A DNA stretch of 47,673 nt from Eubacteriales bacterium (GCA_021371895.1 JAJFVI010000142.1:1-47673), one strand, 5' to 3'. Positions 21,760 through 44,645 are shown, counted from the first letter of the stretch. Numbers and translations: made by a program. The notes: generated by a model from the sequence alone, not told the origin.

Positions 21760-21843
21760 TGGAATCAAACAATCGGGAGCTGCGCCTTTGAACCGGATGT
21801 GCGTCCAGGGCGGTAACTGTAATGGCACACGGCGGCGGGCGGA

Positions 21844-21873
21844 GGCGGGCGGCTTCCGCCCGCGCGCGTTTTT
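21844..21873 (+). terminator. Possible terminator after dapL
   Basis: GGCGGGCGG-CTT-CCGCCCGC is followed by GCGCG and TTTTT. The T run is offset by 5 nt, so the call is only moderate. Confidence 0.4.
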
Positions 21874-22016
21874 CCGGGCAGGCCGCGCCGCGGCCTTCGT
21901 TTGATCGGGGTTTCGCCGCCCCGCCGTGTGGCGATCTTTGGGTGGTAAAAAGGAAAACCCTTCAATAAAGGCGAATAAAACCAGTTAGGATTTCTTTGGG
22001 GAAGGGAGCAATCGAC

Positions 22017-24164
22017 ATGCGGTCTGTCCACGCGCGTATTGGCGTGCGCCGCGATACTGCGGCGCTGTTTACGGTCGCTTCCCGCCCCGCGCGCGTCCAG
22101 CGGGGCAAGCGCCTCGCGCTGGCCTGTATGCTTGTATTGCTCTGTGCTTTGCTTTCCGGCTGCGCCGCGCTGGAGGTGCTCAGCACTCCGGCGCCCGCCG
22201 CCGATACGGTGTCCGCTGGCCCCAACCTGGGGCTGCTTGCTCTGCCGACCTACGAAAACGCCGAAGCCGAAAACCCTTCGGAAACCTCTTCCGGTTCTGG
22301 TTACGCCAACGTCGATCTCTGGCTGGACGCGACCCAGAACATGGGCGGCATCAGCACGGTGAAAAGCAGCATGTATCCCCATTCCGGGCGCAAATACCGC
22401 GAAGGCGGCTTCCAGTACCATTACGGCAATACCGTGGGCTGGTATGAAAGCCTGCTGCGGGATTTTCTGGCCGCCGCGGGCGAAACGCACGTGCGTACTC
22501 TGCGCTACGGCAATGAAACCCTGTCCGACGCGTTTCTGGCCGCAGCCGGCCTGACCGGGACGGACGGGCAGGTCACCGCGTCCGTGTGGCGGGATTTGCA
22601 CACCAGCCAGGTCGATACGAACGCTTCGTTCTTTTCCGGGCTGGCCGGCGAGGATATGGCCTCCAGCTTTTACGCGCTGGGTTCCGCCGCGTGGGTCAAC
22701 CGCCTTTCCGCGCTGGCGTCTTCCGATTTGGAAAATCCCACGCTGACGGACGCGATGAGCGCTGCGCTGGATCAACAGATCGCGGGCATCGCGCAGAAAG
22801 ACGACAGTTTTATTTTGCAGCAGGGGCGTGACGGAGAACAATGCGCCCTGCTCAGCGCGCTTGCCAATATCGATACGGATAAGCTCAGCGTGATTACCGT
22901 AGACCCCGCTTCCCTGCGTAAAACCAGCGGCGCGGACGCGCAGGGGCAGCCCATTGCCTATTACGGGCAGGTGCTGCAGGCGTTGGGCGTGTTCGATAAG
23001 GGGCTCTGCGTGGGTATGCTTGATTTTCAGCTGGATTATCTGGGGCAGCTGTCCACCATTTCCACGGCCACGCTCAGCGAGCCGCTCATCTGGGGGCATA
23101 TTATCCTGAACGAGAAAAAGCTGCTGGGCGTGATGCCGCGGCGGATGCTCACGCTGGTCATCGGGACGCGCGCGCGCGTGGACGCCTTTATCCAGAGCCT
23201 TACGCAATTGATCGACGCCGACGTTACGCTCAAGGGCTTGCGCGGAACCCAGGACGAAGAGCTTTCCTACGCCGCTGGCGGGCAGACCGTCGCTTCGCAG
23301 CCTTTCGGCTTTGCGTGGAACGCTACGGTCATCGCGCGGCCGAGCATGGGGTATTATTCCCAGCATACCGAGGGCGTCGTGCTGACCGCCGAAACCACAG
23401 GCGCCTCGGCGGCGGGCGCGACCGTCGCGACCGGCGAAAACGACGTGGCGCTGGTCAGTCTGACGCCCAACACGGAAGGTAAACAGCCCGACCGAACGCT
23501 AAACATAAGCTTCCCACTGCTTTCCGGCGAGGACGGCGCGTCGCTGGACGTGAGCCGTTTAGGCAAAGCGGGGTTGGAAACGCTGGATACGATACTTTTG
23601 TCCCAAACGCAGGAAAACACCTCCGAAAATCTGGCCGCCGCCGAAGCGAACGGGCAGGAAACCGTCGCCTACCGCGATATGCTTTATCTGTTCAGCCGCG
23701 GTACGGAAAGCGACGCCTTTTCGATCACCTCCATTACCGTGCAAAACGGCATGCTGGTCTGCACCGTCGCGGTTAACGGCGAAGCGCTCAAATCCGGCTA
23801 TTATCGGCTGCGTCTCACGGCGGACGCGACCGGCGAGCAGGTGGCTTGGGAAAGCGTGCCCTGGATCGACGGAGAGCAAAGCGTGTCCGCATCGGTCACC
23901 GACGCGGACGTGTACGCGTGGGAAACCTTCACCGCCGCCATAACGCAGTTCGACCGCGATTCCAAGGGCCTGCCCAAGATGTTCCGTAACGCATGGGGGC
24001 CGTATACCACCGATCTTTACCATGGTCTCGCCGTGCCGGCTTGCCCGCCTGTGTACAAGTCCATCCATCTTGCGGAGCTGGCAGCTCAATTCCGCGGCGC
24101 GGCCGCCGCGGACGAAAGCGCTCTGATCCGCTGCGTGTTTGAAGTTTTCGTCGCCTATCCCTAA
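22017..24164 (+). CDS. Large predicted lipoprotein of unknown function (first gene of the four-gene cluster)
   Basis: The ATG at 22017 follows GGGAAGGGAG. The N-terminus ...KRLALACMLVLLCALLSGC carries a lipobox, with the Cys codon at 22161-22163. I recognise no family. VDLWLDATQNMGG vaguely resembles a vWA MIDAS strand. Confidence 0.65.
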   Translation: MRSVHARIGVRRDTAALFTVASRPARVQRGKRLALACMLVLLCALLSGCAALEVLSTPAPAADTVSAGPNLGLLALPTYENAEAENPSETSSGSGYANVDLWLDATQNMGGISTVKSSMYPHSGRKYREGGFQYHYGNTVGWYESLLRDFLAAAGETHVRTLRYGNETLSDAFLAAAGLTGTDGQVTASVWRDLHTSQVDTNASFFSGLAGEDMASSFYALGSAAWVNRLSALASSDLENPTLTDAMSAALDQQIAGIAQKDDSFILQQGRDGEQCALLSALANIDTDKLSVITVDPASLRKTSGADAQGQPIAYYGQVLQALGVFDKGLCVGMLDFQLDYLGQLSTISTATLSEPLIWGHIILNEKKLLGVMPRRMLTLVIGTRARVDAFIQSLTQLIDADVTLKGLRGTQDEELSYAAGGQTVASQPFGFAWNATVIARPSMGYYSQHTEGVVLTAETTGASAAGATVATGENDVALVSLTPNTEGKQPDRTLNISFPLLSGEDGASLDVSRLGKAGLETLDTILLSQTQENTSENLAAAEANGQETVAYRDMLYLFSRGTESDAFSITSITVQNGMLVCTVAVNGEALKSGYYRLRLTADATGEQVAWESVPWIDGEQSVSASVTDADVYAWETFTAAITQFDRDSKGLPKMFRNAWGPYTTDLYHGLAVPACPPVYKSIHLAELAAQFRGAAAADESALIRCVFEVFVAYP

Positions 24165-24214
24165 GCGCGGCGCACGTGCAACCGTCGCCGCCTCGCCAGA
24201 AAGGACGTCCGTCC

Positions 24215-24841
24215 ATGCCCAGAACCGTACATACGACAGTCCAATACCACAACCGCACGAAAGTGCTGCTGTGTTATGCGATCGCCTGGGGGTTGGCGCT
24301 GGCGCTGCCCTGGCTGGGGCTTACATTCCTTTACCCCTATAAGCTGGCGGGCACCGCGCCGGATCTGGCCGCGACGCTTGCGCAGCTGCCGTTTGCCCTG
24401 CCACAGCCCATGCAAAAAACGCTCGTTGCCACCGCGTTTTCCGCCGGTATGCAGACTGACGCTTTGCAGTTGGCACTCGCTGCGCGCGACTTGGTATGGC
24501 AGTACGTTGTTTTTGCGTTTACGGCACTTGCGTGGGTGCTAAGCCTGCTGTGGCAGTTGTTATGGCGTTTCCGCTTCGTGCGCCCCCGGCAGGCCGCGCG
24601 CACGGCCCTGCGTGCGGTGCGCGCCTACCGCTGGTCGATGCTGGGCATCTGGGCGCTCAACCTGCTTTTGGCGCTTTGTGTATACCTCGTCGGCGTAAGT
24701 CGGATCGCGGATCGCACAATGTGGGATTATCTTTTGTATTTTGGCGGATTCGTACTCCAGCCGCTGGCAGCCATGCTTTGCTTCCGGCTGGCCGCGCCGC
24801 CGGCGCTGAGCGGTAAACACGCGTTTTTCCGCCGATTGTAA
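24215..24841 (+). CDS. Predicted 4-TM membrane protein of unknown function
   Basis: There are four hydrophobic segments: VLLCYAIAWGLALALPWLGL, YVVFAFTALAWVLSLLWQLLW, MLGIWALNLLLALCVYLVGV and YFGGFVLQPLAAMLCFRLA. The start is uncertain (ATG at 24215 or the upstream ORF-track start at 24176). Confidence 0.55.
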   Translation: MPRTVHTTVQYHNRTKVLLCYAIAWGLALALPWLGLTFLYPYKLAGTAPDLAATLAQLPFALPQPMQKTLVATAFSAGMQTDALQLALAARDLVWQYVVFAFTALAWVLSLLWQLLWRFRFVRPRQAARTALRAVRAYRWSMLGIWALNLLLALCVYLVGVSRIADRTMWDYLLYFGGFVLQPLAAMLCFRLAAPPALSGKHAFFRRL

Positions 24842-24898
24842 GCTTTACGGCGCACACCGGCGATTCACCTGGGCTTCGCCCATGACTTGGGAGGCGCT

Positions 24899-27001
24899 AT
24901 GTCCAATTACCTCATCGCCGTAGGCGGCACCGGCAACAAGATACTGGAGGCGCTCGTATATGCCTGTGCGGCCGATGCGTTGTATACGCTGGACGCGCAG
25001 GGCCGCCGCACGCCCCTGCCGGAAGTCCGCGCCCTGATCGTGGATGTGGACGCTGCCTGCGGCAACACCACCCGCGCCAAACAGGCCGCCGAGCATTACG
25101 AACGGGTGCGTTCCGCCTTTGAAACCGCGGGAGTCAGCCGCCGCGGCTTTCACACGGCGCTTACGGTGGAACGCTGGAACATGAACCTCGCCAAACGCTC
25201 CGCCTCCATCGCCGGCATGACGCTTAACCACCGGCGTGATCGGCTGCTGGCCGAAAGCCTCTTTTCCCGCACCGAGGCGGAACTGGAATACAGCGAGGGC
25301 TTCCGCGGCCATCCCGATTTGGGCGTGCTGTTTTTTGCCGATCTGCTCAACCATCTGGGTGAGCGTGCCGCGCAGGGGCAGCCCGACGAAATGGTCGATC
25401 TGCTGGATCAGATCCAGCGGGATCTGGATGCGCTGGAAACGGTCAAGGTCATGCTGGTCGGTTCCATTTTCGGGGGCACCGGCGCCAGCGGCATCCCCAG
25501 CATCTCCCGCTACCTGCGCCAATGTTTCAGCAAGTACGCCGATCACTTCGTGCTTTCGTCGGTGATGATGCTGCCCTATTACGACGTGCCGCCCGCCACC
25601 GTGGACGAGACGTTGGAGATTGTGGTGAAATCCTCGCAATTTTTGGATAAAGCGCGCACCGCGCTGCAATACTACGGCATGGAGGGGATGATCCGCTCCG
25701 GCGAGGACGACCCCGACGGCCTGTATGACGCGCTGTATCTGCTGGGGCTGCCCCGCGATGCTTTTGTGACCACGCGCGTCTACTCCACCGGTTCCCAGAC
25801 GCAGGAAAACGACGCTCACCTGCTGGAATGGCTGGCTGTGCGCTGCGCTTCCATCTTCTTTCGCACCGGGTTTCGCGGCGCGGACGCGCATAACATCGAC
25901 TGCTATTATTACCAGTGGCACTCCCACGACGTATCCTGGGCATGTTTTGACGAGGAAGGCGCCTTGTACCATAACACCTTCGGCGGGCTCATCAAGGCGT
26001 CGGCGCTGTTTTTCTGCGAATGCTATCCCACGCTGCGCGCCTGCGTGCGCCGGGACGAGCGCCGGCTTTCCCGTACGGTCAATTACTGGACGACGTATTT
26101 TTACGACGCGCGCAAGCTGGGCGCAGGGAAACGCGCAGAGCTGGAAAAGCTGATCGATTCGCTTTACCGGCTGATGGCCTTCTACACCAACTGGATGTGG
26201 CAGGTGCTGCGAACGCTGCCCCCCACACTGCGGCCGGAGCGGGAGATTGAGTTGAAAACGCACGAGCTGCAGGCGGTGTACCGAAAGCTTGTGGATACGC
26301 AGGCGGAAAGCCTGGGCCGGGAAAGTGCGCCGGCTTCCGCCACAGGGGAGGACGATGGCACACAGGACGAATATAAACGCCTGAAAGCCAAGCTGGACGA
26401 GCTGATCCCCGCCGTGGGCGGACACGCGTTTTTAAACGCGCTGCAAGCAGAGCGTGAGTTTCGCGCGCAGCGCATGGAAGCCCAGCGGCAAGCATTAAAG
26501 GAGCAAAACGGCAGCATCGCGCGCTGGGAAGGGGAAGATCAGCACCTGATCGACCCCAAGGCACTTAGGCAGGAGAAAAGCCGCCGCGATACCATGCTGC
26601 GCGCGCTGGCCGGTATGGAGGATCGCGCCGCGCTGGTGGAAGCGGATATTGTGCGGGCCGTGGAAAAACATGTGGCGGACGTCACCCCCGCTCTGCGGGA
26701 CGACGAACCTTCTCCCAATAACCTGTTTTCGCCCACCGGGCTGAACGCGATGCACGATCTGCTGGCGCTCTACGGCGCCGAGGCGGAGGAGCGCGACCCC
26801 AAGGCCATGGAGGCGCTTCGCCGCGCCCTGTGGGACGGCTTAAACCGTATCGTCACCCAACGCGTGCCCGACTGTGTCACCGCGGCGCAGGCCGTGGCGG
26901 GGTTGGGCGGCGGCACGCGTGTGGGCGAAGGCCCGCAGGCGGCCTTCGCGAGCTTTACCGCGGCGCTGCTTGCCGCCGTGATGGAGGAGGAAAACGTATG
27001 A
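24899..27001 (+). CDS. Tubulin/FtsZ-superfamily-like GTPase with a long coiled-coil C-terminal region (candidate, Tubulin_2-like)
   Basis: The ATG at 24899 follows GGGAGG. A T1-like loop YLIAVGGTGNKILEAL is encoded near 24917-24940. The T4 signature-like GSIFGGTGASG has GGTGASG at 25472-25492. The C-terminal 250 aa or so are rich in E, R, Q, A and L in a heptad-like pattern. The assignment rests on motifs only. Confidence 0.55.
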   Translation: MSNYLIAVGGTGNKILEALVYACAADALYTLDAQGRRTPLPEVRALIVDVDAACGNTTRAKQAAEHYERVRSAFETAGVSRRGFHTALTVERWNMNLAKRSASIAGMTLNHRRDRLLAESLFSRTEAELEYSEGFRGHPDLGVLFFADLLNHLGERAAQGQPDEMVDLLDQIQRDLDALETVKVMLVGSIFGGTGASGIPSISRYLRQCFSKYADHFVLSSVMMLPYYDVPPATVDETLEIVVKSSQFLDKARTALQYYGMEGMIRSGEDDPDGLYDALYLLGLPRDAFVTTRVYSTGSQTQENDAHLLEWLAVRCASIFFRTGFRGADAHNIDCYYYQWHSHDVSWACFDEEGALYHNTFGGLIKASALFFCECYPTLRACVRRDERRLSRTVNYWTTYFYDARKLGAGKRAELEKLIDSLYRLMAFYTNWMWQVLRTLPPTLRPEREIELKTHELQAVYRKLVDTQAESLGRESAPASATGEDDGTQDEYKRLKAKLDELIPAVGGHAFLNALQAEREFRAQRMEAQRQALKEQNGSIARWEGEDQHLIDPKALRQEKSRRDTMLRALAGMEDRAALVEADIVRAVEKHVADVTPALRDDEPSPNNLFSPTGLNAMHDLLALYGAEAEERDPKAMEALRRALWDGLNRIVTQRVPDCVTAAQAVAGLGGGTRVGEGPQAAFASFTAALLAAVMEEENV

Positions 27002-30000
27002 AGCGCAGGCAGGAGGATCCGCGCGTGGCGCAACCGGCCCGGAAAGAAACCTACCTGACGCTGCTGCCCGATATGGACGAGGGCTTTCATACCGGTTACC
27101 AGACCCGCGCGGGCGTGGTGAGCGACGGTAATCAGCGTCCCCACGAGTGGCTGGAAAGCTTCGCGCGCAACATGCGAACCGCCGGGGAGGACGTCGGCTA
27201 CTCCATTCCGGACGTGCTTGCGGGCGAGGCGCAGCTGCGCCGCCTGATGCGCATGCCCCACGAGGCGGCGATGCGCCATCAGGAAATGGTGGACTGGCGC
27301 GGAGCGCTGGCGGTGCTGCTGCTTTGGGACGGATGGGTGAAGGACGATACCTGGCCCCAGCTCAGCTGCGAGGATATGCTTTCAGGGGAGGGCGGCGCGT
27401 TTCTCCACAGCGTGCGCGCGGCGCTGCCCGCAAACCGAAAAGCCTTTGGGATACGGCTGTTTTTCCTGTCCACGGAACGCGATGGTGTGCCCGAGCGCAA
27501 GGCGCTGGGTATGCTTTCGCCTGTCGTGGCGCTCGCGCCTGCCGCCAACCCCGGCGATCTATCGGGGCTGCTGCCCAAGTGCGTGCATTGGTATAACCGT
27601 GACCGCAAGCGCTTTGAGGATCCCTGCGCCTTTTTAGATGAGGCCGATCGCGCGCGGCTGCTGCAGTACCTTCGCTACCTGCAGGCGCTCAACGAGCGTA
27701 CCGATCTGCAAAGCCCGCTGTACGCAACGGACGCGTCCCTCAGCGGGCTGATCGACCGGTTTATCCGCGATCTGCAAACGCCGCGCACTTCCTGGCGGGA
27801 ACGGTTGGAGGCGGGTGACCCGCACGCGCAGACGGAACTCTACATCCGCGCGTTGGCGGTGTACGGCCTTATGGAGATCAGCGGCCTTACGGGACTCACC
27901 CGGCGGGATATTCCCCTGTCCATCGCGGAGCTCAACTGCAACGTGCTTTTACGCTGGCTGGTTTCCGAGGGCGTCGCCCCGCCGGAGGAATTTGCCGGCA
28001 TCACCGTGACCACCTACGCGTTTGACGGCCTGCCGTTTGCCATCGCCTCCCCGCGTTACCTGCTGGAACCGGTCAACCGGCCGGAAGAGACGGCCACGCT
28101 GCAGCGGCTGTGGGCGGAGATTTCGCTTCCGCTGCAATATAACGGGGAGTGGAACCGCGCCGTGGCCAAGCGCTTTGTGGAGTTGGCCAACCACCTTACC
28201 GGCTTTTCCGGCACCGACAGCCGCGCCAGCCGCCGCGTGATCGAATTGATGCGGCAATGGAGCGCGAAGCTTGCCAATTTCCGCGAATCGGGCGACCGGG
28301 TGCTTTCGCTGAAGCTGCCGCTTTCGGATATGCCCTCCACACTGTCCGGCTTGACGCGGGAGATGGTGGGCATTGACGATACGGAGGCGCTGGCGGGCGC
28401 GTTTTCGGATTGTCTGCTGCTGTGCGCAGGCGACCCGCCCTTTGGCGACGTGGTGCTCAACGAACACTGCGCGGTGCGCGGCGCGGAAAAGTTATACGCC
28501 ATTCCGCCGGTGGCCCCGGCGCTTGCGCTGTGGCTGTCGCGCGCGGCCGAGGAAAGCCAGGATGATCTGCTGCGCCCCCGCCTGCCCGCCGAAGCGTTTG
28601 ATTTTGAGCTGATTCAGGATGCCCATGGGCGTAAGATTCGCGCCCGGATGCACCTTACGCGCAAACAACGTGCGCAGGACGCAACCTTTCAAAACCGCAT
28701 TGAACTGACCAGCGATTATACGTTGGGTACGGAATTTGCCCGGGGGACTGCGGTACCGGTGGCGACCGGGGATTTGCCCACGGTGCGCTGCTGGCCCGCC
28801 GCGCGTCTGGCGCGGGGGCAATGGACAGCCTACTATGTGCTCGCCCAGCGGCCGGACGCGGTGGATGTGCTGGTGCCCGGCGAGGACGGCATGGTACAGG
28901 GTGAGCCGCGCTGCGTTGCGGACGGCGAGGGGGAGCCCCCCGCCGAGCACCGCTGGCAGACCGCACGCACCCGCACCTGGCCGATGTACGTGGCGCTGGC
29001 CCGCGGTAAGCTGAGCCTTGGCGTGTTGCCCAACGACGAACCCGTTTTGCAGCTCAAGCGTGAGGCCCCTGCCGCCGTCGCCATCGATTTCGGCTCCAAC
29101 GCCACCACCGTGATGCTCCGGCAGGGGGAACAGATACGCCCGGCCTCGTTGCCGCCCGAGATGCTTAAAACTTTGCTGAAAGGACGTGTGCAGGACGACT
29201 TGCGCCTGCCTGACGAGCTGCTGCCTGCCCTCTGCTACATGGACGAACGCCGCCCCTCCACCTTTATCAGCGTGATGGACATGTTCAGCGATGACGAGCA
29301 GAAATGGAACGTCCCGCTGCTGGACGGGCACATCTATTACGCGCCCGATCTGGCCGCGCTGCTCAAAAAGAACCCCAACGTCCTCTACTACGATCTCAAA
29401 TGGGGTGAGGAACCCTATGTGGTGCGGTGCCTTCGGCTCTTTCTGAAACAAACTATGCTGCAGGCTTCGCTGGCGGCGCGGCTGGTCGGCTCGCCGACGC
29501 TCAGCTGGCGTATTTCCATGCCCAACGCCATGCCGCTTTACCGGCAGGAAGCTTATCTGGAAATGGTGCGCTCGCTAAGCAAGGAAGTCGCCGCCGATAC
29601 GGGCATGCAGCTGACCGGGGATATGCCGGCAGTACTCTTCGCCCATGAAAACCAGGCGGACGGCCTTTATTTCCGCTACCGTAACGAGGTCAATGCGCGC
29701 AACGGCTATGTGAACATGGACGTGGGCGGCGGTACGACCGACCTGAGCGTGTGGCTGGGCGGCGCGTCGCGGGCTTCCATTGAGGCGTCGCTGCTGCTGG
29801 GTTGCCGGCAGATTCTCTTCGATTCGCTTTCCTCACGCCGCCGTGCCGAGTTCGAGGCGGATTTTGCCAATGCGGACGCGGGTTTGTACCGTCTGGTGCA
29901 GGAGATGGTGCGCGCTTTCGCGGCCGGCCGCAATTCGCTGCGTGCCCGCCAGAAAAACGTATTCCTGCTGGATGCGTTTTTTGCCCGCCATAGCGAAAGC

Positions 30001-30648
30001 ATCGCCGAAACCATGGCCGCCATCCGCGGCGAAGGCCGGGTGAGCCTGCTGGAAAGTCTGCTGCTCTTGAACTTCGGCTTCCTCTTCCGCCTTTGCGGAG
30101 AATTGCTGGATCGCTGTGATTACAGCGAAGAAACCCGCGCCCAGCTTTGCCCGCGTATGGAGATCTGCGTGGCGGGCAACGGCGGCCAGTTTTTAAAGAT
30201 CTTTGACCGCGATACGCGCACCAAGCTGTTCCGCCTGGCGCTTTCCGCCCTTAACCCCGATCACCCCGTGCGGGAGCTGATATTGCTGCAAAGTCGGCAT
30301 CCCAAGCAGGAGGTCGCCCGCGGGTTGCTGGCGGATATTACGCGTCTGGCCAGCAGCGTGCAGGGCGGCGAGGCCGTGGGCCCCGCGCAAACGCTGGCGG
30401 TGCCTTCGGAGAAGCGCCGCGCACTGCTCAAGGAATACTTACAGGATTTTTATTCCGCCTTCCCTCAGGCGGGGGAAAAGCTGCTGGGCAGAGCTTTTGA
30501 GCGGGATGTGAACCCGCAGGTCGTGCGGTTGAAGGCCGCCGCCGAGATTGAGCTGGAAACGGTGCTGGACAACGAAATGGACGACGGGGACGAATTCGGC
30601 GGGTACGTGCGCGCCTTCGCCGCCATGAAGCGTCTGTGGGAAATCTGA
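26998..30648 (+). CDS. 1216-aa protein with C-terminal actin/Hsp70-fold (ASKHA) ATPase motifs
   Basis: The ATG at 26998 overlaps the upstream stop as ATGA. Phosphate-1-like AAVAIDFGSN is at 29071-29100. Phosphate-2-like DVGGGTTD is at 29719-29742. Adenosine-like VAGNGGQ is at 30169-30189. I recognise no motif in the N-terminal 690 aa or so. Confidence 0.6.
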   Translation: MKRRQEDPRVAQPARKETYLTLLPDMDEGFHTGYQTRAGVVSDGNQRPHEWLESFARNMRTAGEDVGYSIPDVLAGEAQLRRLMRMPHEAAMRHQEMVDWRGALAVLLLWDGWVKDDTWPQLSCEDMLSGEGGAFLHSVRAALPANRKAFGIRLFFLSTERDGVPERKALGMLSPVVALAPAANPGDLSGLLPKCVHWYNRDRKRFEDPCAFLDEADRARLLQYLRYLQALNERTDLQSPLYATDASLSGLIDRFIRDLQTPRTSWRERLEAGDPHAQTELYIRALAVYGLMEISGLTGLTRRDIPLSIAELNCNVLLRWLVSEGVAPPEEFAGITVTTYAFDGLPFAIASPRYLLEPVNRPEETATLQRLWAEISLPLQYNGEWNRAVAKRFVELANHLTGFSGTDSRASRRVIELMRQWSAKLANFRESGDRVLSLKLPLSDMPSTLSGLTREMVGIDDTEALAGAFSDCLLLCAGDPPFGDVVLNEHCAVRGAEKLYAIPPVAPALALWLSRAAEESQDDLLRPRLPAEAFDFELIQDAHGRKIRARMHLTRKQRAQDATFQNRIELTSDYTLGTEFARGTAVPVATGDLPTVRCWPAARLARGQWTAYYVLAQRPDAVDVLVPGEDGMVQGEPRCVADGEGEPPAEHRWQTARTRTWPMYVALARGKLSLGVLPNDEPVLQLKREAPAAVAIDFGSNATTVMLRQGEQIRPASLPPEMLKTLLKGRVQDDLRLPDELLPALCYMDERRPSTFISVMDMFSDDEQKWNVPLLDGHIYYAPDLAALLKKNPNVLYYDLKWGEEPYVVRCLRLFLKQTMLQASLAARLVGSPTLSWRISMPNAMPLYRQEAYLEMVRSLSKEVAADTGMQLTGDMPAVLFAHENQADGLYFRYRNEVNARNGYVNMDVGGGTTDLSVWLGGASRASIEASLLLGCRQILFDSLSSRRRAEFEADFANADAGLYRLVQEMVRAFAAGRNSLRARQKNVFLLDAFFARHSESIAETMAAIRGEGRVSLLESLLLLNFGFLFRLCGELLDRCDYSEETRAQLCPRMEICVAGNGGQFLKIFDRDTRTKLFRLALSALNPDHPVRELILLQSRHPKQEVARGLLADITRLASSVQGGEAVGPAQTLAVPSEKRRALLKEYLQDFYSAFPQAGEKLLGRAFERDVNPQVVRLKAAAEIELETVLDNEMDDGDEFGGYVRAFAAMKRLWEI

Positions 30649-30758: not shown

Positions 30759-32765
30759 TTAGGGCTTATAGTAATGGATGATCTTCACACATCGGTCGTT
30801 ATTGAGCAAATATTGCAATATCCACACCTTGCCGTCCGTTGTTTTGCAGGAATATTGCACGGTACGGGTATCGTCGTCGTTTTGCAGCACCACGCCGGAG
30901 TTGAGATCGTTGTAATAGAGGTTGCGGCTGCCGTCCTGGTTGGGAAGCATCCCCATATCCTTATAAGCGGCCACGATGTCGCTTTCGCTGTCACCCAGCC
31001 CCACGCCGCGCGGCGACGCGGCAATCTTATCGTTCATCTCGATGCGCACCATCTGCCATTTGTTCTCGTTAAGGATAAACACGGCATACCCCCAAGCATA
31101 CTCCAGGTGCTGCGCCTCGTCCGCCAGGGTCAGGTATTGTGTGGTAACAGCCGATTTGGGCTGTCCGAACTGCGCCTTGAAATCTTCTACGGAGGTGCTG
31201 TTGAGCTTGAAGCCGTCGAAGGTGTCCGCGTCGCTGTAGATCGCCTGCAGATACGGCTTGGCCTTGAATTTGTAGGTGACTTCCAGCGTGCTGGATTGTT
31301 TGCCATAGCCGTTTACGGCGATCGCCCGCAGGGTGACGCCGCCGCTGGGCAGTTGGATAGGCGTTCCATCGTACACGGGGCTCAGTTCCGGGTCGGGGGT
31401 GGATCCGTCGATGGTGTAATAAAAGGTCTGCTGATCTTCCTTGGCGAGTTGCTCCTTGGTCTTTTTACTGCGCTGCTCCCTGGTTTGGGTATTGGCGCCC
31501 GCGCGTAAACCGACTGTGTGGAGGCTAGTATAGGTGTTGGGTGCGAGGTTGCATTTGGGGGCGGGGGGCGAGGGGTAATAAACGGTGTAGGACATACTCA
31601 TCTCGTCGCTCACCAGGTCGTCCGCCACGCATACGGCGCGCAGGACGAAAGTGCCTTCGGGGATCGTGACGGTGTTGTTCTCCACCAGTTGTCCGCCCTT
31701 CGGCAGCACCGCGGCGCTATCCAGCGTATAGTAAATCTCGTACCCCTGCGGTGAGGTAACGGTGATGCGCTGTTCCAACTCGTAGCGGCCCGCGAGGTGA
31801 TCGGTGTCCACCTGGGGCGTATTGGGGATAAAATCCTTGCGCTGCTGGCGGAAGCTGTCTTTATCGGTGCTCTGGTAAGCCAGCAGCATCATATCGGCGG
31901 CTTCCGGGTCGCGCCCGGTATCCAGGTAGAGGGTGATAAGCGCCGTATACGCTTCGGTGCGCGAAGGGTTGACCGTTTTGATCAGCGATTGGTAAACCGC
32001 TTCCGCTTCGTTATCCATGCTGTTAAGTTCGTAAGCGGTACTCAATTGCATCAGGCCGTCGTAGTTCTCGGGATCCAGAATATCGGCGATGCGGAAAGCT
32101 ATAATGGAATCGTCCATATCGCCTTCATCCAAATACTCCTGCCCGACCACCCAGTAGGACTGCGCGGGCGCGTCGTCCAGCGATTTAAGCGCTTCCTTAC
32201 GCGCTGTTTCCCTTGCGGAGTCGGCGCTGGAGGCCAGCGTAAGCAGCGCCTCGTTGGTGGCGAGCACACGCTTGCGCGCGGTCATGCGCTGTCCGGCGTC
32301 GGAGGTGTTCAGGTAAACCAGGTAGCCTATGCCCGCGAGCATGGCGAGGCCTACGCAGATTACGCCGATCATCATCCAGTTTACGGGATGCTGGGACACG
32401 CCCTTGGCTTTGCCGCGGCGGGAAACCACCGGCCGCGTGCGGCTGCTGCCGTGCACCGGTACGCCCCGGCGGGTGTTGGGGCGGCTGGCAAAGGTTTCCA
32501 GCACGGGCCCGGAAGCCTTTGGCGGCTTGCGGTGCACGCCGCGCTCCTGTTCCACGGGGAAGGGTGAGTTTTCAAAATCCCCATACTCGGGTATTTCGCT
32601 GCGCGCCTCGTCCGGCAGGGAAGTAGGAGCAGCGCTATGGCGGCCCTGCCTGAGGGCGCGCACGCCCGTATCCCGCGGCTCGTCGCTGCGGCTTACCATT
32701 GCGCCGCAAATGTGGCAAATAATCTCGTCCTCCTCAAGATAGTTGCCACAGCGTTTACAGATCAT
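30759..32765 (-). CDS. Zinc-ribbon / single-TM / TPR protein with C-terminal chitobiase-hexosaminidase-C-like (Fn3-associated) domains
   Basis: The ATG at 32765 (MICKRCGNYLEEDEIICHICGAMV, a CxxC...CxxC zinc ribbon) follows GGGAGGAA. The TM segment is WMMIGVICVGLAMLAGIGYLVYL. Downstream are TPR-like repeats and two YYT(L/I)DGS...LRA(V/I) modules. The ORF-track start at 32909 would overlap the upstream gene. Confidence 0.7.
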   Translation of the reverse strand: MICKRCGNYLEEDEIICHICGAMVSRSDEPRDTGVRALRQGRHSAAPTSLPDEARSEIPEYGDFENSPFPVEQERGVHRKPPKASGPVLETFASRPNTRRGVPVHGSSRTRPVVSRRGKAKGVSQHPVNWMMIGVICVGLAMLAGIGYLVYLNTSDAGQRMTARKRVLATNEALLTLASSADSARETARKEALKSLDDAPAQSYWVVGQEYLDEGDMDDSIIAFRIADILDPENYDGLMQLSTAYELNSMDNEAEAVYQSLIKTVNPSRTEAYTALITLYLDTGRDPEAADMMLLAYQSTDKDSFRQQRKDFIPNTPQVDTDHLAGRYELEQRITVTSPQGYEIYYTLDSAAVLPKGGQLVENNTVTIPEGTFVLRAVCVADDLVSDEMSMSYTVYYPSPPAPKCNLAPNTYTSLHTVGLRAGANTQTREQRSKKTKEQLAKEDQQTFYYTIDGSTPDPELSPVYDGTPIQLPSGGVTLRAIAVNGYGKQSSTLEVTYKFKAKPYLQAIYSDADTFDGFKLNSTSVEDFKAQFGQPKSAVTTQYLTLADEAQHLEYAWGYAVFILNENKWQMVRIEMNDKIAASPRGVGLGDSESDIVAAYKDMGMLPNQDGSRNLYYNDLNSGVVLQNDDDTRTVQYSCKTTDGKVWILQYLLNNDRCVKIIHYYKP

Positions 32766-32809
32766 GAAACGGTTTCCTCCCTTCCCGAAATTGCGATGCC
32801 GCCTGTTGG

Positions 32810-33496
32810 TTACGGCGTCACCTGTGGGGTCGGGGACTGGTTGTTGACCGCGTGGTCGTTGATCACCAGCTGAAATTCCTGCCCCAGAAAAGCCGCGGCT
32901 TTTTCGCACATCACGATGCGCGGCATGTAGATACTCAGGTAATCCAACACGCTGCTGGAACTGTCCATGGTCAGGGATTGCCGTATGAGGCGGGTTTTCC
33001 GATCGACAATCACAGTGTTTTGCTGTATGGAGAAATTGACGCGGTCGTGCACGTCGCCGGGGTCGGGCCGACCGTTGCGCACACGGCTTTTGTGTGCGTC
33101 GCTCTTATCGCCGATGACCAGCGCCGCGCTTACGGCGCTGCTTACGATGCCGCTCTGCTCCTCATGGTTGCCTACGGCGGTGATGATCTCCACGGTATCC
33201 ACGATGCTCATGCCCGCCTCCTTAAGGATGGGAAAGAGCATTACGGCGCCGTTGGGGCCGTGATCGTGGCGGTTGATGCTGTTGCCCACGTCGTGTACCC
33301 AGCCGGCGATGGCCGCCAGCTCGATTTCCCGCTCACTGTACCCTAAAGCTTTGAGGATGTAGCTCGCCGTGCGGCTGACGTAACTCAGGTGTCTGGGCCC
33401 GTGGTCGGTGTACCCCAGCGCTTCCAGGTAATGGTTGCCCGCTTTGACCAGCGCACGGATACTCTCGTTTCTCTTGATCTCATCCAGTGTGATCAT
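32810..33496 (-). CDS. HD-domain phosphohydrolase
   Basis: 228 aa. The H...HD motif is present (GPRHLSY...GWVHDVGNSINRHDHG). Confidence 0.8.
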   Translation of the reverse strand: MITLDEIKRNESIRALVKAGNHYLEALGYTDHGPRHLSYVSRTASYILKALGYSEREIELAAIAGWVHDVGNSINRHDHGPNGAVMLFPILKEAGMSIVDTVEIITAVGNHEEQSGIVSSAVSAALVIGDKSDAHKSRVRNGRPDPGDVHDRVNFSIQQNTVIVDRKTRLIRQSLTMDSSSSVLDYLSIYMPRIVMCEKAAAFLGQEFQLVINDHAVNNQSPTPQVTP

Positions 33497-37922: not shown

Positions 37923-38915
37923 TCACGGTTGCGGATTGCTGCCGTCCTGTCCGTCTTCTTCGTCCTCATCAGTTTCCACATAGAGGCCTCGGTTGAGTTG
38001 CGCGCCTTCGATTTTTACGTTGATGTACTTATCAAACACGGCGTTTGTGTAGCTGGCAGCCACGAACCGGCTGAGAGAAAAACCCAAAAGCACGTAGTAG
38101 AGGATGCAGATCATCAGCGCCCATTGGAAATACGGCGTCAGATAGCTGACTACCGCAGCGATCAGCACAGGCACGATGGAAAGCAACTTCAGCCCCACCG
38201 TGATCGGCAAACGACCGATGGTTAAAAGGAGGCTGTTGCGCAGCACGTCGCGGTAGCGGAGGTGGTAGGTAACGATCAGCGGGTAGGTGTACATCAGGCT
38301 CATCAGCCACACAATGCCCAGCAGAAGCGTCAGCACCTGCGGAATGATATAGAGCGTATTGCTTTGCGCCATCTGCCCGTAAAACGACCAACATACGTAC
38401 ACGATCACCGGCACAAATCCCGTGATGACGCTGGTGATGAGCCCCTGCTTCCAGTTTTCCTTTACGGCGTCCTTATAATCACCCCACAGAAAGGCGTGCT
38501 CGTCGCGTGCCCAGTTGCGGGTTACCAGGCTGATGCCTGCCGTAAACGGACCCGTAATGGCAAGCGCCGGGATTAAGAATAGCAGCCCCTGGAATGCTAT
38601 TGACTTTATGGCGTCCACGTACAGCGCCTGTTGCGTGGCAAACTCCGCAGCCGCCAGCGTACCCGCGTCCAACTGAGCCTGCATGTCGGCCAGATTGACC
38701 GTGGCCGAGTAGAACATAAGCACATGGAAGCCGATCACCAGCAGCGCCGGAAGCCAGCTTAGCATATACAACAAATTTAACCGCATCAACCCACTGAAGC
38801 GCGTGCGCAGCGTCTCCCAGAAAAGCTGGGTGCGGGTTCCGGGCAGATCCTCGTGGGTGTAATCCCCCTTACCGCTCTTTCCGTAGAAGTAACCATTCAT
38901 GAATTTTCCAAACAT
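37923..38915 (-). CDS. DUF624 (YesL-like) multi-pass membrane protein
   Basis: 330 aa. The N-terminus (FWETLRTRFSGLMRLNLLYMLSWLPALLVIG) and several TM segments resemble the YesL/DUF624 family. It has an acidic C-terminal tail. Confidence 0.65.
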   Translation of the reverse strand: MFGKFMNGYFYGKSGKGDYTHEDLPGTRTQLFWETLRTRFSGLMRLNLLYMLSWLPALLVIGFHVLMFYSATVNLADMQAQLDAGTLAAAEFATQQALYVDAIKSIAFQGLLFLIPALAITGPFTAGISLVTRNWARDEHAFLWGDYKDAVKENWKQGLITSVITGFVPVIVYVCWSFYGQMAQSNTLYIIPQVLTLLLGIVWLMSLMYTYPLIVTYHLRYRDVLRNSLLLTIGRLPITVGLKLLSIVPVLIAAVVSYLTPYFQWALMICILYYVLLGFSLSRFVAASYTNAVFDKYINVKIEGAQLNRGLYVETDEDEEDGQDGSNPQP

Positions 38916-38967
38916 AAACCGTACCTCCCCTGTGTGCCGCGCGCATGACGCTAACGACCGTTAAAAT

Positions 38968-38996
38968 ATTATACCATGTTTTTGTTCAATCCACAA
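38968..38996 (-). promoter_or_regulatory. Candidate promoter of the DUF624 gene
   Basis: The minus strand reads TTGTGG, N17, then TGgTATAAT (TATAAT at 38973-38968). It lies about 50 nt upstream of the ATG at 38915. Confidence 0.45.
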
Positions 38997-39087
38997 CCAG
39001 CGCAAGTCCAGCATTTTCAACGTTCTTTGAACTTTTTCCACCCGTAAATTATGCTAAAGTTGCGCCCATTAGTAACAGGTTAGTATC

Positions 39088-39243
39088 TTAGTTTACGGCA
39101 GCTTCCGCGTCCTGCGCAGCCTGTTTCATGGCGCTTCGCACCTCGTCGGGCGATACGCCGGGGGCAACGCACACGGTTACCGTAACCTTCCCGGAATCCG
39201 TAAAACTTAACATGGTCATGTCGGGTTTTTCTTCATCAACCAT
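39088..39243 (-). CDS. Small hypothetical phage ORF (51 aa, not in the ORF track)
   Basis: My hand translation reads MVDEEKPDMTMLSFTDSGKVTVTVCVAPGVSPDEVRSAMKQAAQDAEAAVN. The ATG at 39243 overlaps the upstream stop (ATGGTTGA) and is preceded by GGAGGA. Confidence 0.35.
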   Translation of the reverse strand: MVDEEKPDMTMLSFTDSGKVTVTVCVAPGVSPDEVRSAMKQAAQDAEAAVN

Positions 39244-39577
39244 TGCCTTCATCCTCCGTGCCGTCCGTCGTAGGGGGGAAAATCAGCGGAGAAATAACGC
39301 CGTTCCAAACGGCGCATACTCCGGCGCTGATTGCCGTGCCCAGCAAGCTAATCAATGCGCTTCCGAAAGCATCCCCGGAAAGCGCCCATAGCGCCGGGAA
39401 CGACGTGGTAAAAATACCCGTGGCCGATTGCCAGAACGTTTTCATCGTGCGCACCCATACGTCACGGGTGCGAATTCTCGCCCAGATTTCAGCAAACGTC
39501 TTTCCGGTGGAAGCAATCGCCGCTCTGATCTTGGCAGGCACAAAGGCCGTGTACATTTTCAGCAAAAACTGTTTCAT
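39236..39577 (-). CDS. Putative holin / phage membrane protein
   Basis: 113 aa with hydrophobic segments (GIFTTSFPALWAL and ALISLLGTAISAGVCAVW). It sits in the lysis cassette, and its start is ATGA-coupled to the upstream gene. Confidence 0.45.
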   Translation of the reverse strand: MKQFLLKMYTAFVPAKIRAAIASTGKTFAEIWARIRTRDVWVRTMKTFWQSATGIFTTSFPALWALSGDAFGSALISLLGTAISAGVCAVWNGVISPLIFPPTTDGTEDEGNG

Positions 39578-39888
39578 TCCGTTTCTCCTTTCGCCGTCCT
39601 GCGGCCGGAAGTAAGATCGTCCAGTCGCTTGTGCGCTTGTTTGGTGCTTTGCTCACAGGCAATAAGTCGTTCGCGCGTTTCTTTGGATTCGTTGCTCATT
39701 ACACCCATGCTGGTTTTAATTTCGCTTACATCGGTGCGTATAAAATCCAATTTGACTGACACCATGGTCATATCCGCGCCTTCTTTTTGAGCATCTGTTC
39801 GGTCGTTCCGGCGCTTGGTTGCCAATCCGAAATAAAGCGCGACCGCTACCGACAAGGTACCAAGCAGTACAGATATTTCAATTGTCAT
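39574..39888 (-). CDS. Phage membrane protein (N-terminal TM plus coiled coil), possible lysis accessory or holin-like
   Basis: MTIEISVLLGTLSVAVALYFGLATKRR is followed by a charged helical region. I use the ATG at 39888 because the longer ORF-track version (to 40218) would overlap the endolysin gene. Confidence 0.45.
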   Translation of the reverse strand: MTIEISVLLGTLSVAVALYFGLATKRRNDRTDAQKEGADMTMVSVKLDFIRTDVSEIKTSMGVMSNESKETRERLIACEQSTKQAHKRLDDLTSGRRTAKGETE

Positions 39889-39913
39889 AGCATCCCGTCC
39901 AGTCCTTGTCTTT

Positions 39914-40714
39914 TTACATCTGAATGAAGTTCTTCTGGCACCATCTGGCCGAACCAAGCCAGTACACCTTGTAATAGTTGCCCTTTTCCCCAAGCACCTG
40001 CACGCGCGTGCCGTTGGGAATGCTGTATTTCCAAATGGCGGTTTTTTCGGGTTTTTCCCGCGCCTTGACGGGGTTGCCGTCGGGCGTAACCACCACGCCG
40101 TAGGTTTGCGTAACGGGGGTTGTGGCAACGGTTGCGCTTGCAACACCTTCGGTTTGTTCCGCATCGCCAATAGCGGCGGTTTCACCAAGTACCGTTGCGC
40201 CCCCGGTATAGTTCGCATCGCCCATGAGCGCCGCCTTTTGCGCAGCAGTCAGCCCGCAATCAATCCATTCAGACCATCCAACCATGTTCCATCCACCGTT
40301 GGGCACCGCCGTGCGGCCGTTGAACTTTGTGGAAATTGTAACGCCACCAACAGACGCGGAACTGTTAAACGTTTGGCCGTTGCCCATGTAAATGCCAATG
40401 TGATCCGCGTTTCCGTATCCGTCCCCGGCGTATTTCGCAGGTTCGCCGCTGGAAAGCACAATGAACATCATGAATCCGGCAGGTACTTCGCGTACCTTTA
40501 GAAGCTCGCACAGCCGTTCCGGCGTACCGCGCCAAAGGCATTTGCGATAGTGGGCATTGCTTCCCGCAAGGTTGCATACGCTTGCGGATATGCCGCACCG
40601 GATCAGCGCTTGTTCCACCGCCGCTTGGCAATCCATCTGCGCGTATGTAATCCCTTCGGTCAACAGCTGTTTACAGGCCGCAATCAGCGCGGCATTGGTA
40701 ATCGTAGTTGCCAT
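39914..40714 (-). CDS. Endolysin: NlpC/P60 (C40) peptidase with a C-terminal SH3b-like domain
   Basis: The Cys context is YAQMDCQAAV and the His context is NADHIGIYMGNG. The C-terminal KAREKPEKTAIWKYSIPNGTRVQVLGEKGNYYKVYW is SH3b-like. Confidence 0.85.
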   Translation of the reverse strand: MATTITNAALIAACKQLLTEGITYAQMDCQAAVEQALIRCGISASVCNLAGSNAHYRKCLWRGTPERLCELLKVREVPAGFMMFIVLSSGEPAKYAGDGYGNADHIGIYMGNGQTFNSSASVGGVTISTKFNGRTAVPNGGWNMVGWSEWIDCGLTAAQKAALMGDANYTGGATVLGETAAIGDAEQTEGVASATVATTPVTQTYGVVVTPDGNPVKAREKPEKTAIWKYSIPNGTRVQVLGEKGNYYKVYWLGSARWCQKNFIQM

Positions 40715-40834
40715 GGGTTCTTTCTCCCCCTTCGCGTGTCAAGCAAAAAAGAAGCCTGTCAAAACGCATATAACGTTCATATAAGGCTTCTTTCTTGTCC
40801 TTTGATATTTCGGTCGTATCGAAAAACGCCCCCG

Positions 40835-40963
40835 TTATTCGCCAGCCAACGCGCCGCAATCAAGGTCGGTCAAAACTTCCCTCACCTGCTCTTTGATCAA
40901 CGCGGGTACGTCGGCAAACATCTTCTTACCTTTGATGATCAGTGTTGCGTAGATAATCGCCAT
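40835..40963 (-). CDS. Small CD1375/XkdX-like phage protein, copy 2
   Basis: MAIIYATLIIKGKKMFADVPALIKEQVREVL... starts at the ATG at 40963, preceded by GAGGTGA. It is paralogous to the adjacent 35-aa ORF. Confidence 0.55.
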   Translation of the reverse strand: MAIIYATLIIKGKKMFADVPALIKEQVREVLTDLDCGALAGE

Positions 40964-41003
40964 TTCTTTCACCTCATTTCGATAAAAAGTATAAAACCAC
41001 AGG

Positions 41004-41111
41004 TTAAGCGTCCAGTCCCAAAAGCGTTTCAACATCGGCTTTCAGCGTGGCGGGCACGTCCTCCAAGGTTTTCAAGCCTTTGCGGATCAGTTCGGCGTAT
41101 ATTTTCGCCAT
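41004..41111 (-). CDS. Small CD1375/XkdX-like phage protein, copy 1 (35 aa, not in the ORF track)
   Basis: My hand translation reads MAKIYAELIRKGLKTLEDVPATLKADVETLLGLDA. It shows the same IYAxLIxKGxK...DVPxxxK pattern as copy 2. Confidence 0.55.
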   Translation of the reverse strand: MAKIYAELIRKGLKTLEDVPATLKADVETLLGLDA

Positions 41112-41128
41112 GGTTTTTCACTCCTTCC

Positions 41129-41383
41129 TTACGGGGTTACCAGCAGTTCGTATACGTCGCACAGGGCAAGCTGGGTGTCGGTAAGTTGGGTTTCCAGTTG
41201 GGCGATATACTCATTCTTATCGTACTGCTTCAGGTCGTATTCGTACTCGGTACGGGGTTCCCCGTTTTCTCCCGCGTCACCAATAACAACGGGTACAACA
41301 TTTTCCGCGACCCATACGCTCGCTTCGTCCATCACCCGTGCTTCAGGCTGTACCGTGCTTCTGACTTTACCATGATCAGTCAT
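41129..41383 (-). CDS. Hypothetical phage protein (XkdW-like position)
   Basis: 84-aa ORF lying 4 nt downstream of the RT gene. It is acidic and ends in ...QLETQLTDTQLALCDVYELL. Confidence 0.5.
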   Translation of the reverse strand: MTDHGKVRSTVQPEARVMDEASVWVAENVVPVVIGDAGENGEPRTEYEYDLKQYDKNEYIAQLETQLTDTQLALCDVYELLVTP

Positions 41384-41386
41384 CTG

Positions 41387-42493: not shown

Positions 42494-42668
42494 GTTTGCA
42501 CCTTTCGTGTATGCAGATTGCCGAACCTTCAACCTACCGATGGTTTACCAGCACGGCTTCTGAAACATTTTTCTGTTTTGCCAAGGGGCAGGGTAAACCG
42601 GATAGGCTATATTGAAGCCCCCTCTGGTTTGCGCCAAAGGGGGCGTTCAACCATTTTTGCATTGATCA

Positions 42669-42775
42669 AGCCGCCTGCTGATATTCCGATTGCGATTCGC
42701 TGACGTATTATTCACATTCAGATAGAACTCACTCGCATTACTGCCATTATTCCAATTACTGCCTAGTTTACAAAC
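42669..42775 (-). repeat. DGR template repeat (TR)
   Basis: 107 nt that align without gaps to 42867-42973 at an offset of 198. The coding-strand TR translates to VCKLGSNWNNGSNASEFYLNVNNTSANRNRNISRR and is rich in AAY Asn codons. Confidence 0.9.
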
Positions 42776-42838
42776 TAAAATAATGTTTTTTATGCGAATG
42801 GTTATCAGTTGGGCATATCCGGTTTACCCATGGTCAAA

Positions 42839-44623: not shown

Positions 44624-44645
44624 GTTCCCATCATCCTTTCTATTC

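Follow-up and report, generated by a model that had tools for sequence, protein, structure and literature searches.

Of all branches of the tubulin superfamily, the FtsZl1 proteins diverge furthest; known from sequence alone, they have been recognized as a kind since 2010 and are modelled in Pfam, where Tubulin_2 (PF13809) is the model of this 'FtsZ-like' family (PMC9871819); a role in remodelling the membrane or envelope has been proposed for the branch. They carry inserts between loops T1 and T4, have no identifiable T6-H7 region and possess an extended coiled coil and a helical C-terminal domain (Makarova & Koonin 2010, PMC2875224), and their operons contain vWA, GTPase, kinase and OmpA genes (PMC2875224). 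Tubulins are also found in the DO-GTPase/GAP1-N2 systems of Firmicutes, in which a tubulin with a C-terminal coiled coil is accompanied by vWA proteins, one of them extracellular, and Hsp70-only proteins belong to a sister theme (Kaur, Burroughs, Iyer & Aravind 2020, PMC7159879); their predicted site of action is close to the membrane, via assemblies dependent on nucleoside triphosphates (NTPs) (PMC7159879). Here we compare with these systems a four-gene cassette, genes A to D, on a 47,673-nucleotide stretch of DNA from an Eubacteriales bacterium (GCA_021371895.1, JAJFVI010000142.1:1-47673; hereafter the window, meaning the whole stretch). From its sequence, the product of the third gene, C, is predicted to bind NTPs in the cytoplasm and to belong to the tubulin/FtsZ superfamily; it keeps loops T1 to T5. 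Sequence comparison makes the gene C subfamily a distant sister of FtsZl1 within the tubulin superfamily; it is large and has no separate prior description. In the literature searched we did not find it as a distinct unit, that is, short proteins of 500-700 amino acids (aa) with a marginal Tubulin_2 match, an invariable giant partner resembling the Hsp70 nucleotide-binding domain (NBD), and a vWA-like lipoprotein and a small membrane protein encoded upstream, in 444 GTDB species.

Tubulin-type loops and fold of gene C

The open reading frame (ORF) of gene C spans 24887-27001 (+), and the likely start is the ATG at 24899, with a GGAGG ribosome-binding site 5 nt upstream; the product then has 700 aa (Table 1). 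A reading of the window made from its sequence before this analysis (the original prediction) had proposed a T1 loop after strand S1 and a T4 tubulin signature about 190 residues further on, and both loops were recovered. The segment YLIAVGGTGNKILEAL at residues 4-19 contains T1, which in the AlphaFold model comes right after strand E2-8, and the T4 core GSIFGGTGASG (residues 188-198; in a shorter variant SIFGGTGASG, residues 189-198) follows modelled strand E182-189; the canonical FtsZl1 protein shows GSISGGTGSG at this position. Five loops stand in the correct order when gene C is set against E. coli FtsZ and the canonical FtsZl1 protein, the gene C/FtsZ pairs being GGTGNK/GGGGGN for T1, VDVDA/VNTDA for T2, GFRGHPDLG/GLGAGANPEVG for T3, GSIFGGTGASG/GMGGGTGTG for T4 and MLPYY/TKPFN for T5. 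T1 and T4 are invariant among 25-26 aligned gene C homologues (47-74% identity), and the T2-like segment is invariant across the close family. In an alignment of 43 relatives (18-38% identity), G9, G12 and G192-A196 are conserved at 90-100%, G10, D51 and G137 at 90% or more, and G9, G12, G134 and G142 are invariant; together with E17, P226 and a few aromatics, these are the sole invariant or near-invariant residues. Family-wide conservation thus falls exactly on loops T1, T3, T4 and T5. Judged by this conservation, the glycine loops of gene C are not chance glycine runs.

The T1-T4 spacing, taken from G10 to G193, is 183 aa in gene C, close to the roughly 190 aa first estimated, versus 86-88 aa in E. 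coli FtsZ. The large insertion proposed to account for the difference holds only in part: the extra length is real, but in the model it is split over at least three inserts, namely a beta-hairpin at residues 25-41, about 40 residues of low-confidence short helices between S3 and T3, and a longer H3 region.

Profile and structure comparisons bore out the proposal of a divergent tubulin/FtsZ protein, possibly of the Tubulin_2 or FtsZl-like type. Tubulin_2 matches residues 6-228 with 31.0 bits (E = 2.1e-7; profile positions 3-208 of 356), above its gathering score of 27 bits, and 34 of 43 sampled distant relatives match the same model (best 1.3e-13), with 12 of the 43 matching PF00091 (gathering score 33 bits). 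By hhalign, the broad-family profile aligns with Npun_AF098, the canonical FtsZl1 protein of Nostoc punctiforme, at 95.6% probability (E = 1.3e-8); the 250 aligned columns reach from T1 to S6 and place window residues 1-314 on Npun_AF098 residues 8-286. The AlphaFold model (predicted local distance difference test score (pLDDT) 80, predicted template modelling score (pTM) 0.78) has the strand-loop-helix order of the N-terminal tubulin/FtsZ domain, and every one of its top 50 Foldseek matches in the PDB is an alpha-, beta-, gamma- or Asgard tubulin (probability 0.5-1.0, with 47 of the 50 at 0.96 or above); in the viral fold library BFVD no match was significant, the top one being a phage tubulin at E = 0.06. 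Some gene C homologues are already labelled 'tubulin-like' in NCBI.

The original prediction had named a different NTPase fold, or the lack of any profile match, as what would speak against it, and neither was found. That gene C encodes some other Rossmann-type or P-loop NTPase, its glycine loops a mere coincidence, could be argued from PDB sequence searches, which returned no tubulin or FtsZ chain and only coiled-coil noise with either the single protein or the family profile, and from the modest Foldseek E-values. This explanation is effectively refuted by a Tubulin_2 match that exceeds the Pfam cutoff and recurs among the relatives, by the hhalign match to canonical FtsZl1, by structural neighbours that are tubulins throughout the top 50, by five ordered loops with matching patterns and by the absence of a Walker A motif from gene C.

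Within the superfamily, the match of gene C to Tubulin_2 is partial and weak (31 bits versus 385 bits for Npun_AF098, which scores 385.5 bits over positions 1-355), and not the strong full-length match of a strict FtsZl1 member; as the Tubulin_2 score is remote, yet the hhalign match to Npun_AF098 is good, we file the subfamily as a sister of FtsZl1 and not as typical FtsZl1. The two have in common the T4 variant GSIxGGTGxG, insertions in the T1-T4 interval, the lack of an identifiable T6-H7/T7 region and of an FtsZ/tubulin-type C-terminal domain, an adjoining small membrane-protein gene, and OmpA-family genes in some operons; next to FtsZl1 there is also a vWA gene, to which the putatively vWA-like gene A may correspond. 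They differ in size (500-700 aa in the gene C family versus 850-1400 aa), in the coiled coil, which is optional in the gene C family (about 160 aa, of weak heptad character), in the obligate Hsp70-NBD-like partner of 1100-1250 aa, a protein missing from the list of regular FtsZl1 neighbours, and in the vWA-like partner, which for gene C is a lipoprotein with a degenerate metal-ion-dependent adhesion site (MIDAS).

The original prediction had also recognized no T7 synergy loop, and this absence appears real. The canonical motif (NxDxxD/E) was not found in gene C, and the 43-sequence alignment holds no family-wide conserved acidic residue beyond G283; N332-x-D334, which follows an H7-like helix, looks T7-like but is limited to the close clade. 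No beta-rich C-terminal domain was found in the model, in which the chain from S6 to residue 446 is helical and everything after residue 325 is helical save one 4-residue strand. Because the model is helical here and no acidic residue is conserved, we take T7 to be truly absent, which matches published FtsZl1. These features bear on whether gene C could form a conventional cytomotive filament of the FtsZ/TubZ/PhuZ kind, with GTP-dependent head-to-tail protofilaments, their hydrolysis activated across the longitudinal interface, serving division or DNA segregation. The conserved nucleotide-binding loops, the close-clade NxD at residues 332-334 and an acidic C-terminal tail reminiscent of those by which FtsZ and tubulin bind partners would suit such a role, and TubZ and PhuZ are likewise divergent bacterial members of the superfamily with C-terminal tails for polymer or partner contacts; both, however, retain T7 as well as the C-terminal domain, and they occur in partition or phage contexts, whereas tblastn found no gene C homologue in 50,697 phage genomes. 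Given a model devoid of the beta-rich domain, a T7-type acidic residue that is not conserved family-wide, the lack of division or partition context (no ParB/TubR-like DNA-binding gene and no division and cell wall (dcw) genes near gene C), a chromosomal location and obligate partners that are membrane and Hsp70-like proteins, we consider such a filament improbable.

The last part of the protein had been described as an E/R/Q/A/L-rich, heptad-like tail. The composition of residues 447-600 (A 15%, E 12%, R 10%, L 10%, D 7%, Q 6%) and the confident long helices of the model (residues 449-475, 485-506, 508-544 and 553-589) agree with this description, but the 3.5-residue periodicity, by a crude test, is weak except at about 554-616, and the tail consists of two parts, a lineage-specific helical insert and a conserved 93-residue domain that ends with an amphipathic helix and the acidic tail AVMEEENV (family form AVMEEExx). 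The insert is missing in 13 of 39 related loci and is therefore evolutionarily labile; it is absent from L010 and L058 (Limiplasma; N-terminal domain 76-77% identical), yet more distant relatives carry it, indicating that it was lost or gained more than once. Two further segments, residues 229-252 (window 25583-25654) and 290-301 (25766-25801), are among the most conserved stretches of the protein (EIVVKSSxFLDKARTAL and YSTGSQ, respectively), yet are the only ones with pLDDT below 50, which suggests loops that order only with nucleotide or partner bound.

A conserved cassette with an Hsp70-like partner

The ATG of gene D overlaps the gene C stop by 4 nt (ATGA), an overlap kept in 29 of 39 related loci, and GGAGGAGG stands upstream of the gene D start. 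Modelling of gene D residues 480-1216 (pLDDT 89.7, pTM 0.90) followed by a Foldseek search of the PDB gave 529 matches at E <= 1e-3, of which the top 50 are all Hsp70/Hsc70/DnaK NBDs (best 4.9e-9; target-normalised TM-score about 0.5). Among homologues the ASKHA motifs hardly vary, so that gene D likely encodes an active ATPase; ahead of its NBD lie an uncharacterised N-terminal part of 480 aa and a region rich in beta structure. For gene D, whose homologues are all annotated 'hypothetical', no Pfam, NCBIfam or PADLOC model was significant, and NCBIfam and PADLOC returned nothing for any of genes A-D.

A tubulin-fold NTPase gene beside a gene for an actin/Hsp70-fold ASKHA ATPase, together with a conserved C-terminal tail and a tie to the membrane, recalls the FtsZ-FtsA pair. 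The gene order is reversed, however, D is three times the size of FtsA and structurally nearest to the Hsp70 NBD, with only the phosphate-2 motif aligning to FtsA (DIGGGTMD), and C is without the T7 loop, the C-terminal domain and division-gene context. We read the resemblance as functional analogy only. A locus of Magnetospirillum magneticum, amb2959-amb2961, in which two vWA genes precede a 1626-aa 'DnaK (HSP70)' (PMC2875224, supplementary file 5), is possibly an earlier sighting of the link between tubulin-like, vWA and giant Hsp70-like proteins.

The four genes are co-directional, with a strong terminator upstream of gene A and none inside the cassette. The order A-B-C-D is found in all Christensenellales loci (L001-L060, including Candidatus Limiplasma and Egerieenecus; gene C identity 49-88%) whose contigs reach far enough, some genes going undetected off contig ends. 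Gene C identity follows taxonomy, and the GC content of the cassette equals that of its flanks, which hold dapF/dapL or, in about 38 Christensenellales loci, a GT4 glycosyltransferase gene directly upstream of gene A. The GT4 gene lies on the same strand as gene A (e.g. L002 5747-7234, L004 5370-6701), the clade of the window having dapF and an aminotransferase gene instead, and this adjacency, seen in most Christensenellales loci, may hint at a connection to the synthesis of envelope glycopolymers.

Downstream of its lipobox, gene A carries a degenerate vWA-like motif, VDLWLDATQNMGG (residues 106-118), with DATQN where the MIDAS DxSxS would sit, and a second motif, LSVITVD, at residues 297-303. 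By hhalign, gene A aligns with the upstream lipoproteins of distant loci, which carry DATLSM and DVSGSM, at 95.4% probability (E = 1.9e-8), and these sequence features are suggestive of a vWA domain in the gene A lipoprotein family. Gene B is conserved in position and sequence across loci L001-L060, and comparison with the small membrane proteins of distant loci gave no detectable homology.

Searching 1.84 billion cluster representatives with the family profile yielded 1,727 relatives (clusters at 50% identity) at E <= 1e-3, most of them 480-600 aa long and covering profile positions 1 to about 440; the distribution of the subfamily is patchy across phyla. We inspected 15 distant loci (27-34% identity), drawn from Acidobacteriota, Cyanobacteria, Bacteroidota, Chlorobiaceae, Selenomonadaceae and a second Christensenellales type. 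In 14 of them the next ORF after the tubulin-like gene is D-like and 1059-1267 aa long, and in the 15th tblastn gave a D-like match downstream; the tubulin-like genes are usually preceded by a small protein with 3-4 transmembrane (TM) helices and a lipoprotein. The pairing of a tubulin-like with an Hsp70-like gene is conserved across several phyla.

Some genomes hold more than one form of the cassette. One metagenome-assembled genome (MAG), JAZKYW01 (Candidatus Limiplasma sp.), contains two paralogous cassettes (L037 and L051), 58% and 49% identical to the window protein, and a third type, 30% identical, occurs in Spyradocola, Catabacter and Christensenella (L061-L065); two paralogues in one MAG and a third type imply that the cassette was duplicated or exchanged within the order. 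Related modules also occur on cyanobacterial plasmids: the 47.5-kb mobilizable plasmid of Gloeothece verrucosa PCC 7822 (NC_014503.1; L085 8502-16785) carries a gene C/D-type module made up of a small membrane protein, a 511-aa 'tubulin-like domain-containing protein', a 1118-aa D-like hypothetical protein with a weak FtsA match and two coiled-coil-rich hypothetical proteins, and three Picosynechococcus plasmids carry gene C relatives.

Possible functions of the cassette

We favour, at a rough probability of 0.55, the reading that this divergent tubulin-like and Hsp70-like cassette constitutes an envelope-coupled, vertically inherited housekeeping assembly. A housekeeping role is favoured because in Christensenellales the cassette is syntenic, flanked by housekeeping genes, matched in GC content and apparently universal, and coupling to the membrane is indicated by the gene A lipobox, the approximately four TM helices of B and the ZorAB-like genes of the Acidobacteriota operons. 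In the mechanism we propose, A to D would form one membrane-anchored machine, in which gene C self-assembles in a nucleotide-dependent manner on the inner face of the membrane, using non-canonical contacts to which the helical insert, in proteins that have it, would contribute. The binding site for D on C would plausibly be the conserved C-terminal domain or the acidic tail, by analogy with FtsA on the tail of FtsZ; once bound, D would remodel, cap or disassemble the gene C assembly. An event on the envelope side, sensed by A and B (or elsewhere by ZorAB-like stators), would be coupled to this assembly. In Christensenellales the cassette would most likely serve to remodel the membrane or envelope, the role proposed for FtsZl1, and would not be a mobile accessory.

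Several observations weigh against this reading. Any polymerisation would have to proceed in a protein that has neither T7 loop nor C-terminal domain. The PF00091 match of gene C covers the T4 region only and, at 25.1 bits, falls under the cutoff; hhalign to E. coli FtsZ gave only short local matches (S1-T1-S2 with the close-family profile, T4 with the broad one); and the tubulin matches by Foldseek are modest, with E-values of 3.5e-3 to 2e-2 and target-normalised TM-scores of 0.2-0.3. Physical contact between C and D is inferred solely from gene order and translational coupling. The original prediction had suggested that the tail would suit oligomerisation or docking to the downstream protein, and to the docking the conserved stop/start overlap alone lends support, since no segment of D tracks the presence of the helical insert, D differing by only about 30 aa on average. 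As for the vWA domain of gene A, a Pfam scan of 19 homologues gave no significant vWA match and a single weak one (E = 0.055), a PDB profile search and hhalign against E. coli YegL found nothing, and a database search with a combined profile that includes gene A retrieved only unnamed close homologues, all annotated 'hypothetical'. Lastly, plasmid-borne relatives and ZorAB-like neighbours fit defence equally well.

The ZorAB-like neighbours are found in Acidobacteriota operons (L066 13969-16470; L072, L073, L077, L078, L079), which go on beyond the tubulin-like and Hsp70-like genes and encode there a 600-780-aa MotA/ExbB-like protein with a coiled coil and then an OmpA/MotB-like protein of about 230 aa, a pair that matches PADLOC ZorA (E = 4e-6) and ZorB (E = 2e-15). 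The matches suggest a Zorya-like stator coupled to partners that are not those of Zorya. Likeness to Zorya is confined to these Acidobacteriota relatives, whose operons end with the ZorA- and ZorB-like proteins; the window cassette is without ZorAB-like genes, and A-D match no ZorC-G or other PADLOC model. The systems of Kaur et al. offer a second comparison: they, too, have tubulin-domain proteins with a C-terminal coiled coil and vWA proteins and, in a sister theme, Hsp70-only proteins, but their tubulin and Hsp70 themes are separate in the paper (PMC7159879), and the two are always paired here, and the window cassette looks vertically inherited and contains no DO-GTPase, GAP1 or FNIII component.

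These comparisons underlie the alternative that the cassette is an anti-phage or conflict system, in which an envelope sensor (A and B, or a ZorAB-like stator) would detect invasion and trigger NTP-dependent assembly of C and D as a threshold-setting or effector complex, along the lines that Kaur et al. 2020 proposed for tubulin/vWA/Hsp70 systems and in the manner of Zorya. ZorA-like and ZorB-like genes in the same operon in Acidobacteriota, the presence of the module on the Gloeothece mobilizable plasmid and other cyanobacterial plasmids, the patchy distribution among phyla, the paralogous cassettes of some MAGs (L037, L051) and the placing of tubulin plus coiled coil plus vWA, and separately of Hsp70, in predicted conflict systems (PMC7159879) all speak for it. 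Set against these are the lack of any PADLOC match to A-D or their distant homologues, the ZorAB-like genes excepted, and the lack of a recognisable effector in the window cassette, in which Pfam scans revealed no nuclease, protease, TIR or pore-forming domain. The DO-GTPase, GAP1 and FNIII parts that define the Kaur systems are missing (no P-loop GTPase or FNIII Pfam match in A-D or the flanking genes), no homologue occurs among the phage genomes, and the syntenic, apparently universal, housekeeping-flanked and GC-matched cassette of Christensenellales is unlike a defence island. On balance, we regard defence as less likely than the housekeeping assembly that we favour, and as its main rival.

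A broader idea, which we advance tentatively, is that the tubulin-like gene and the giant Hsp70/actin-fold gene form the core of an undescribed two-NTPase machine spread across phyla and wired to the envelope by the vWA-like lipoprotein and the small membrane protein, with a proton-driven stator of the ZorAB-like kind as a further link in some phyla. If true, this machine would represent either a new membrane-remodelling cytoskeleton or a new Zorya-like class of defence, with a tubulin-fold assembly that does not use the T7 mechanism. The compact, conserved four-gene core and the large subfamily offer a tractable entry point to the question of whether a tubulin fold can assemble when it has no T7 loop or C-terminal domain, and open a second one, the effect of an obligate Hsp70/actin-fold partner on a tubulin-like protein. 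The ZorAB-like link in some phyla and the housekeeping-like inheritance in an order of gut-associated Clostridia bear on the exchange of parts between cytoskeleton and defence. For annotation, four 'hypothetical' genes become nameable as one system.

Coordinates and neighbouring sequence

Table 1. Positions of the cassette, its parts and the upstream terminator in the window; residue numbers refer to the encoded protein.
Feature	Position	Strand	Residues or size	Remarks
Intrinsic-terminator-like hairpin	21835..21863	+	12 pairs (10 G-C), then T-run	Parts dapF/aminotransferase genes from cassette
Gene A, lipoprotein	21996..24164	+	715-722 aa; lipobox LLSGC 52-56	Conserved in all Christensenellales loci
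Gene B, small polytopic membrane protein	24176..24841	+	About 4 TM helices: 30-52, 106-129, 156-174, 185-203	Hydropathy scan
Gene C, predicted tubulin/FtsZ-superfamily protein, FtsZl1-related subfamily	24899..27001	+	700 aa	
T1 loop GGTGNK	24923..24940	+	9-14	Aligns with E. coli FtsZ GVGGGGGN
T2-like segment VDVDAACGN	25040..25066	+	48-56	Aligns with FtsZ AVNTDA
T3-like loop GFRGHPDLG	25298..25324	+	134-142	Pattern matches FtsZ GLGAGANPEVG
T4 signature GSIFGGTGASGIP	25460..25498	+	188-200	Invariant; local PF00091 match at residues 167-212
T5-like MLPYY; strand S6 YLLGLP; invariant YSTGSQxQENDAH	25568..25819	+	224-228; 280-285; 295-307	
Lineage-specific helical insert, loosely coiled-coil-like	26237..26719	+	447-607	Absent from forms of about 530 aa
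Conserved alpha-helical C-terminal domain	26720..26998	+	608-700 (93 aa)	Kept in both length classes
Gene D, predicted ATPase with C-terminal Hsp70-NBD-like ASKHA domain	26998..30648	+	1216 aa	
Gene D ASKHA motifs	29083..30189	+	696-704; 883-889; 907-917; 1058-1064	Phosphate-1 IDFGSNATT; HENQADG; phosphate-2 MDVGGGTTDLS; adenosine VAGNGGQ

A 526-aa antisense ORF opposite gene C (24845-26425, -) was set aside as a shadow ORF of the kind expected at 62-65% GC; homology to it was not sought. Downstream of the cassette, 30759-32909 (-) encodes a convergent protein of 716 aa whose N-terminus is zinc-ribbon-like and which also has a TM segment and the domains CHB_HEX_C_1 and Fn3_assoc; as this neighbour is kept in the Limiplasma clade (67-77% identity) and not in other clades, it is probably outside the system. 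Farther right, over window positions 38000-47673, GC drops from about 0.62 to about 0.50, and 42839-44653 (-) matches a phage tail-collar fibre N-terminal domain (E = 4e-7). This right-hand end of the window resembles an inserted prophage or other foreign DNA and appears to have nothing to do with the cassette.

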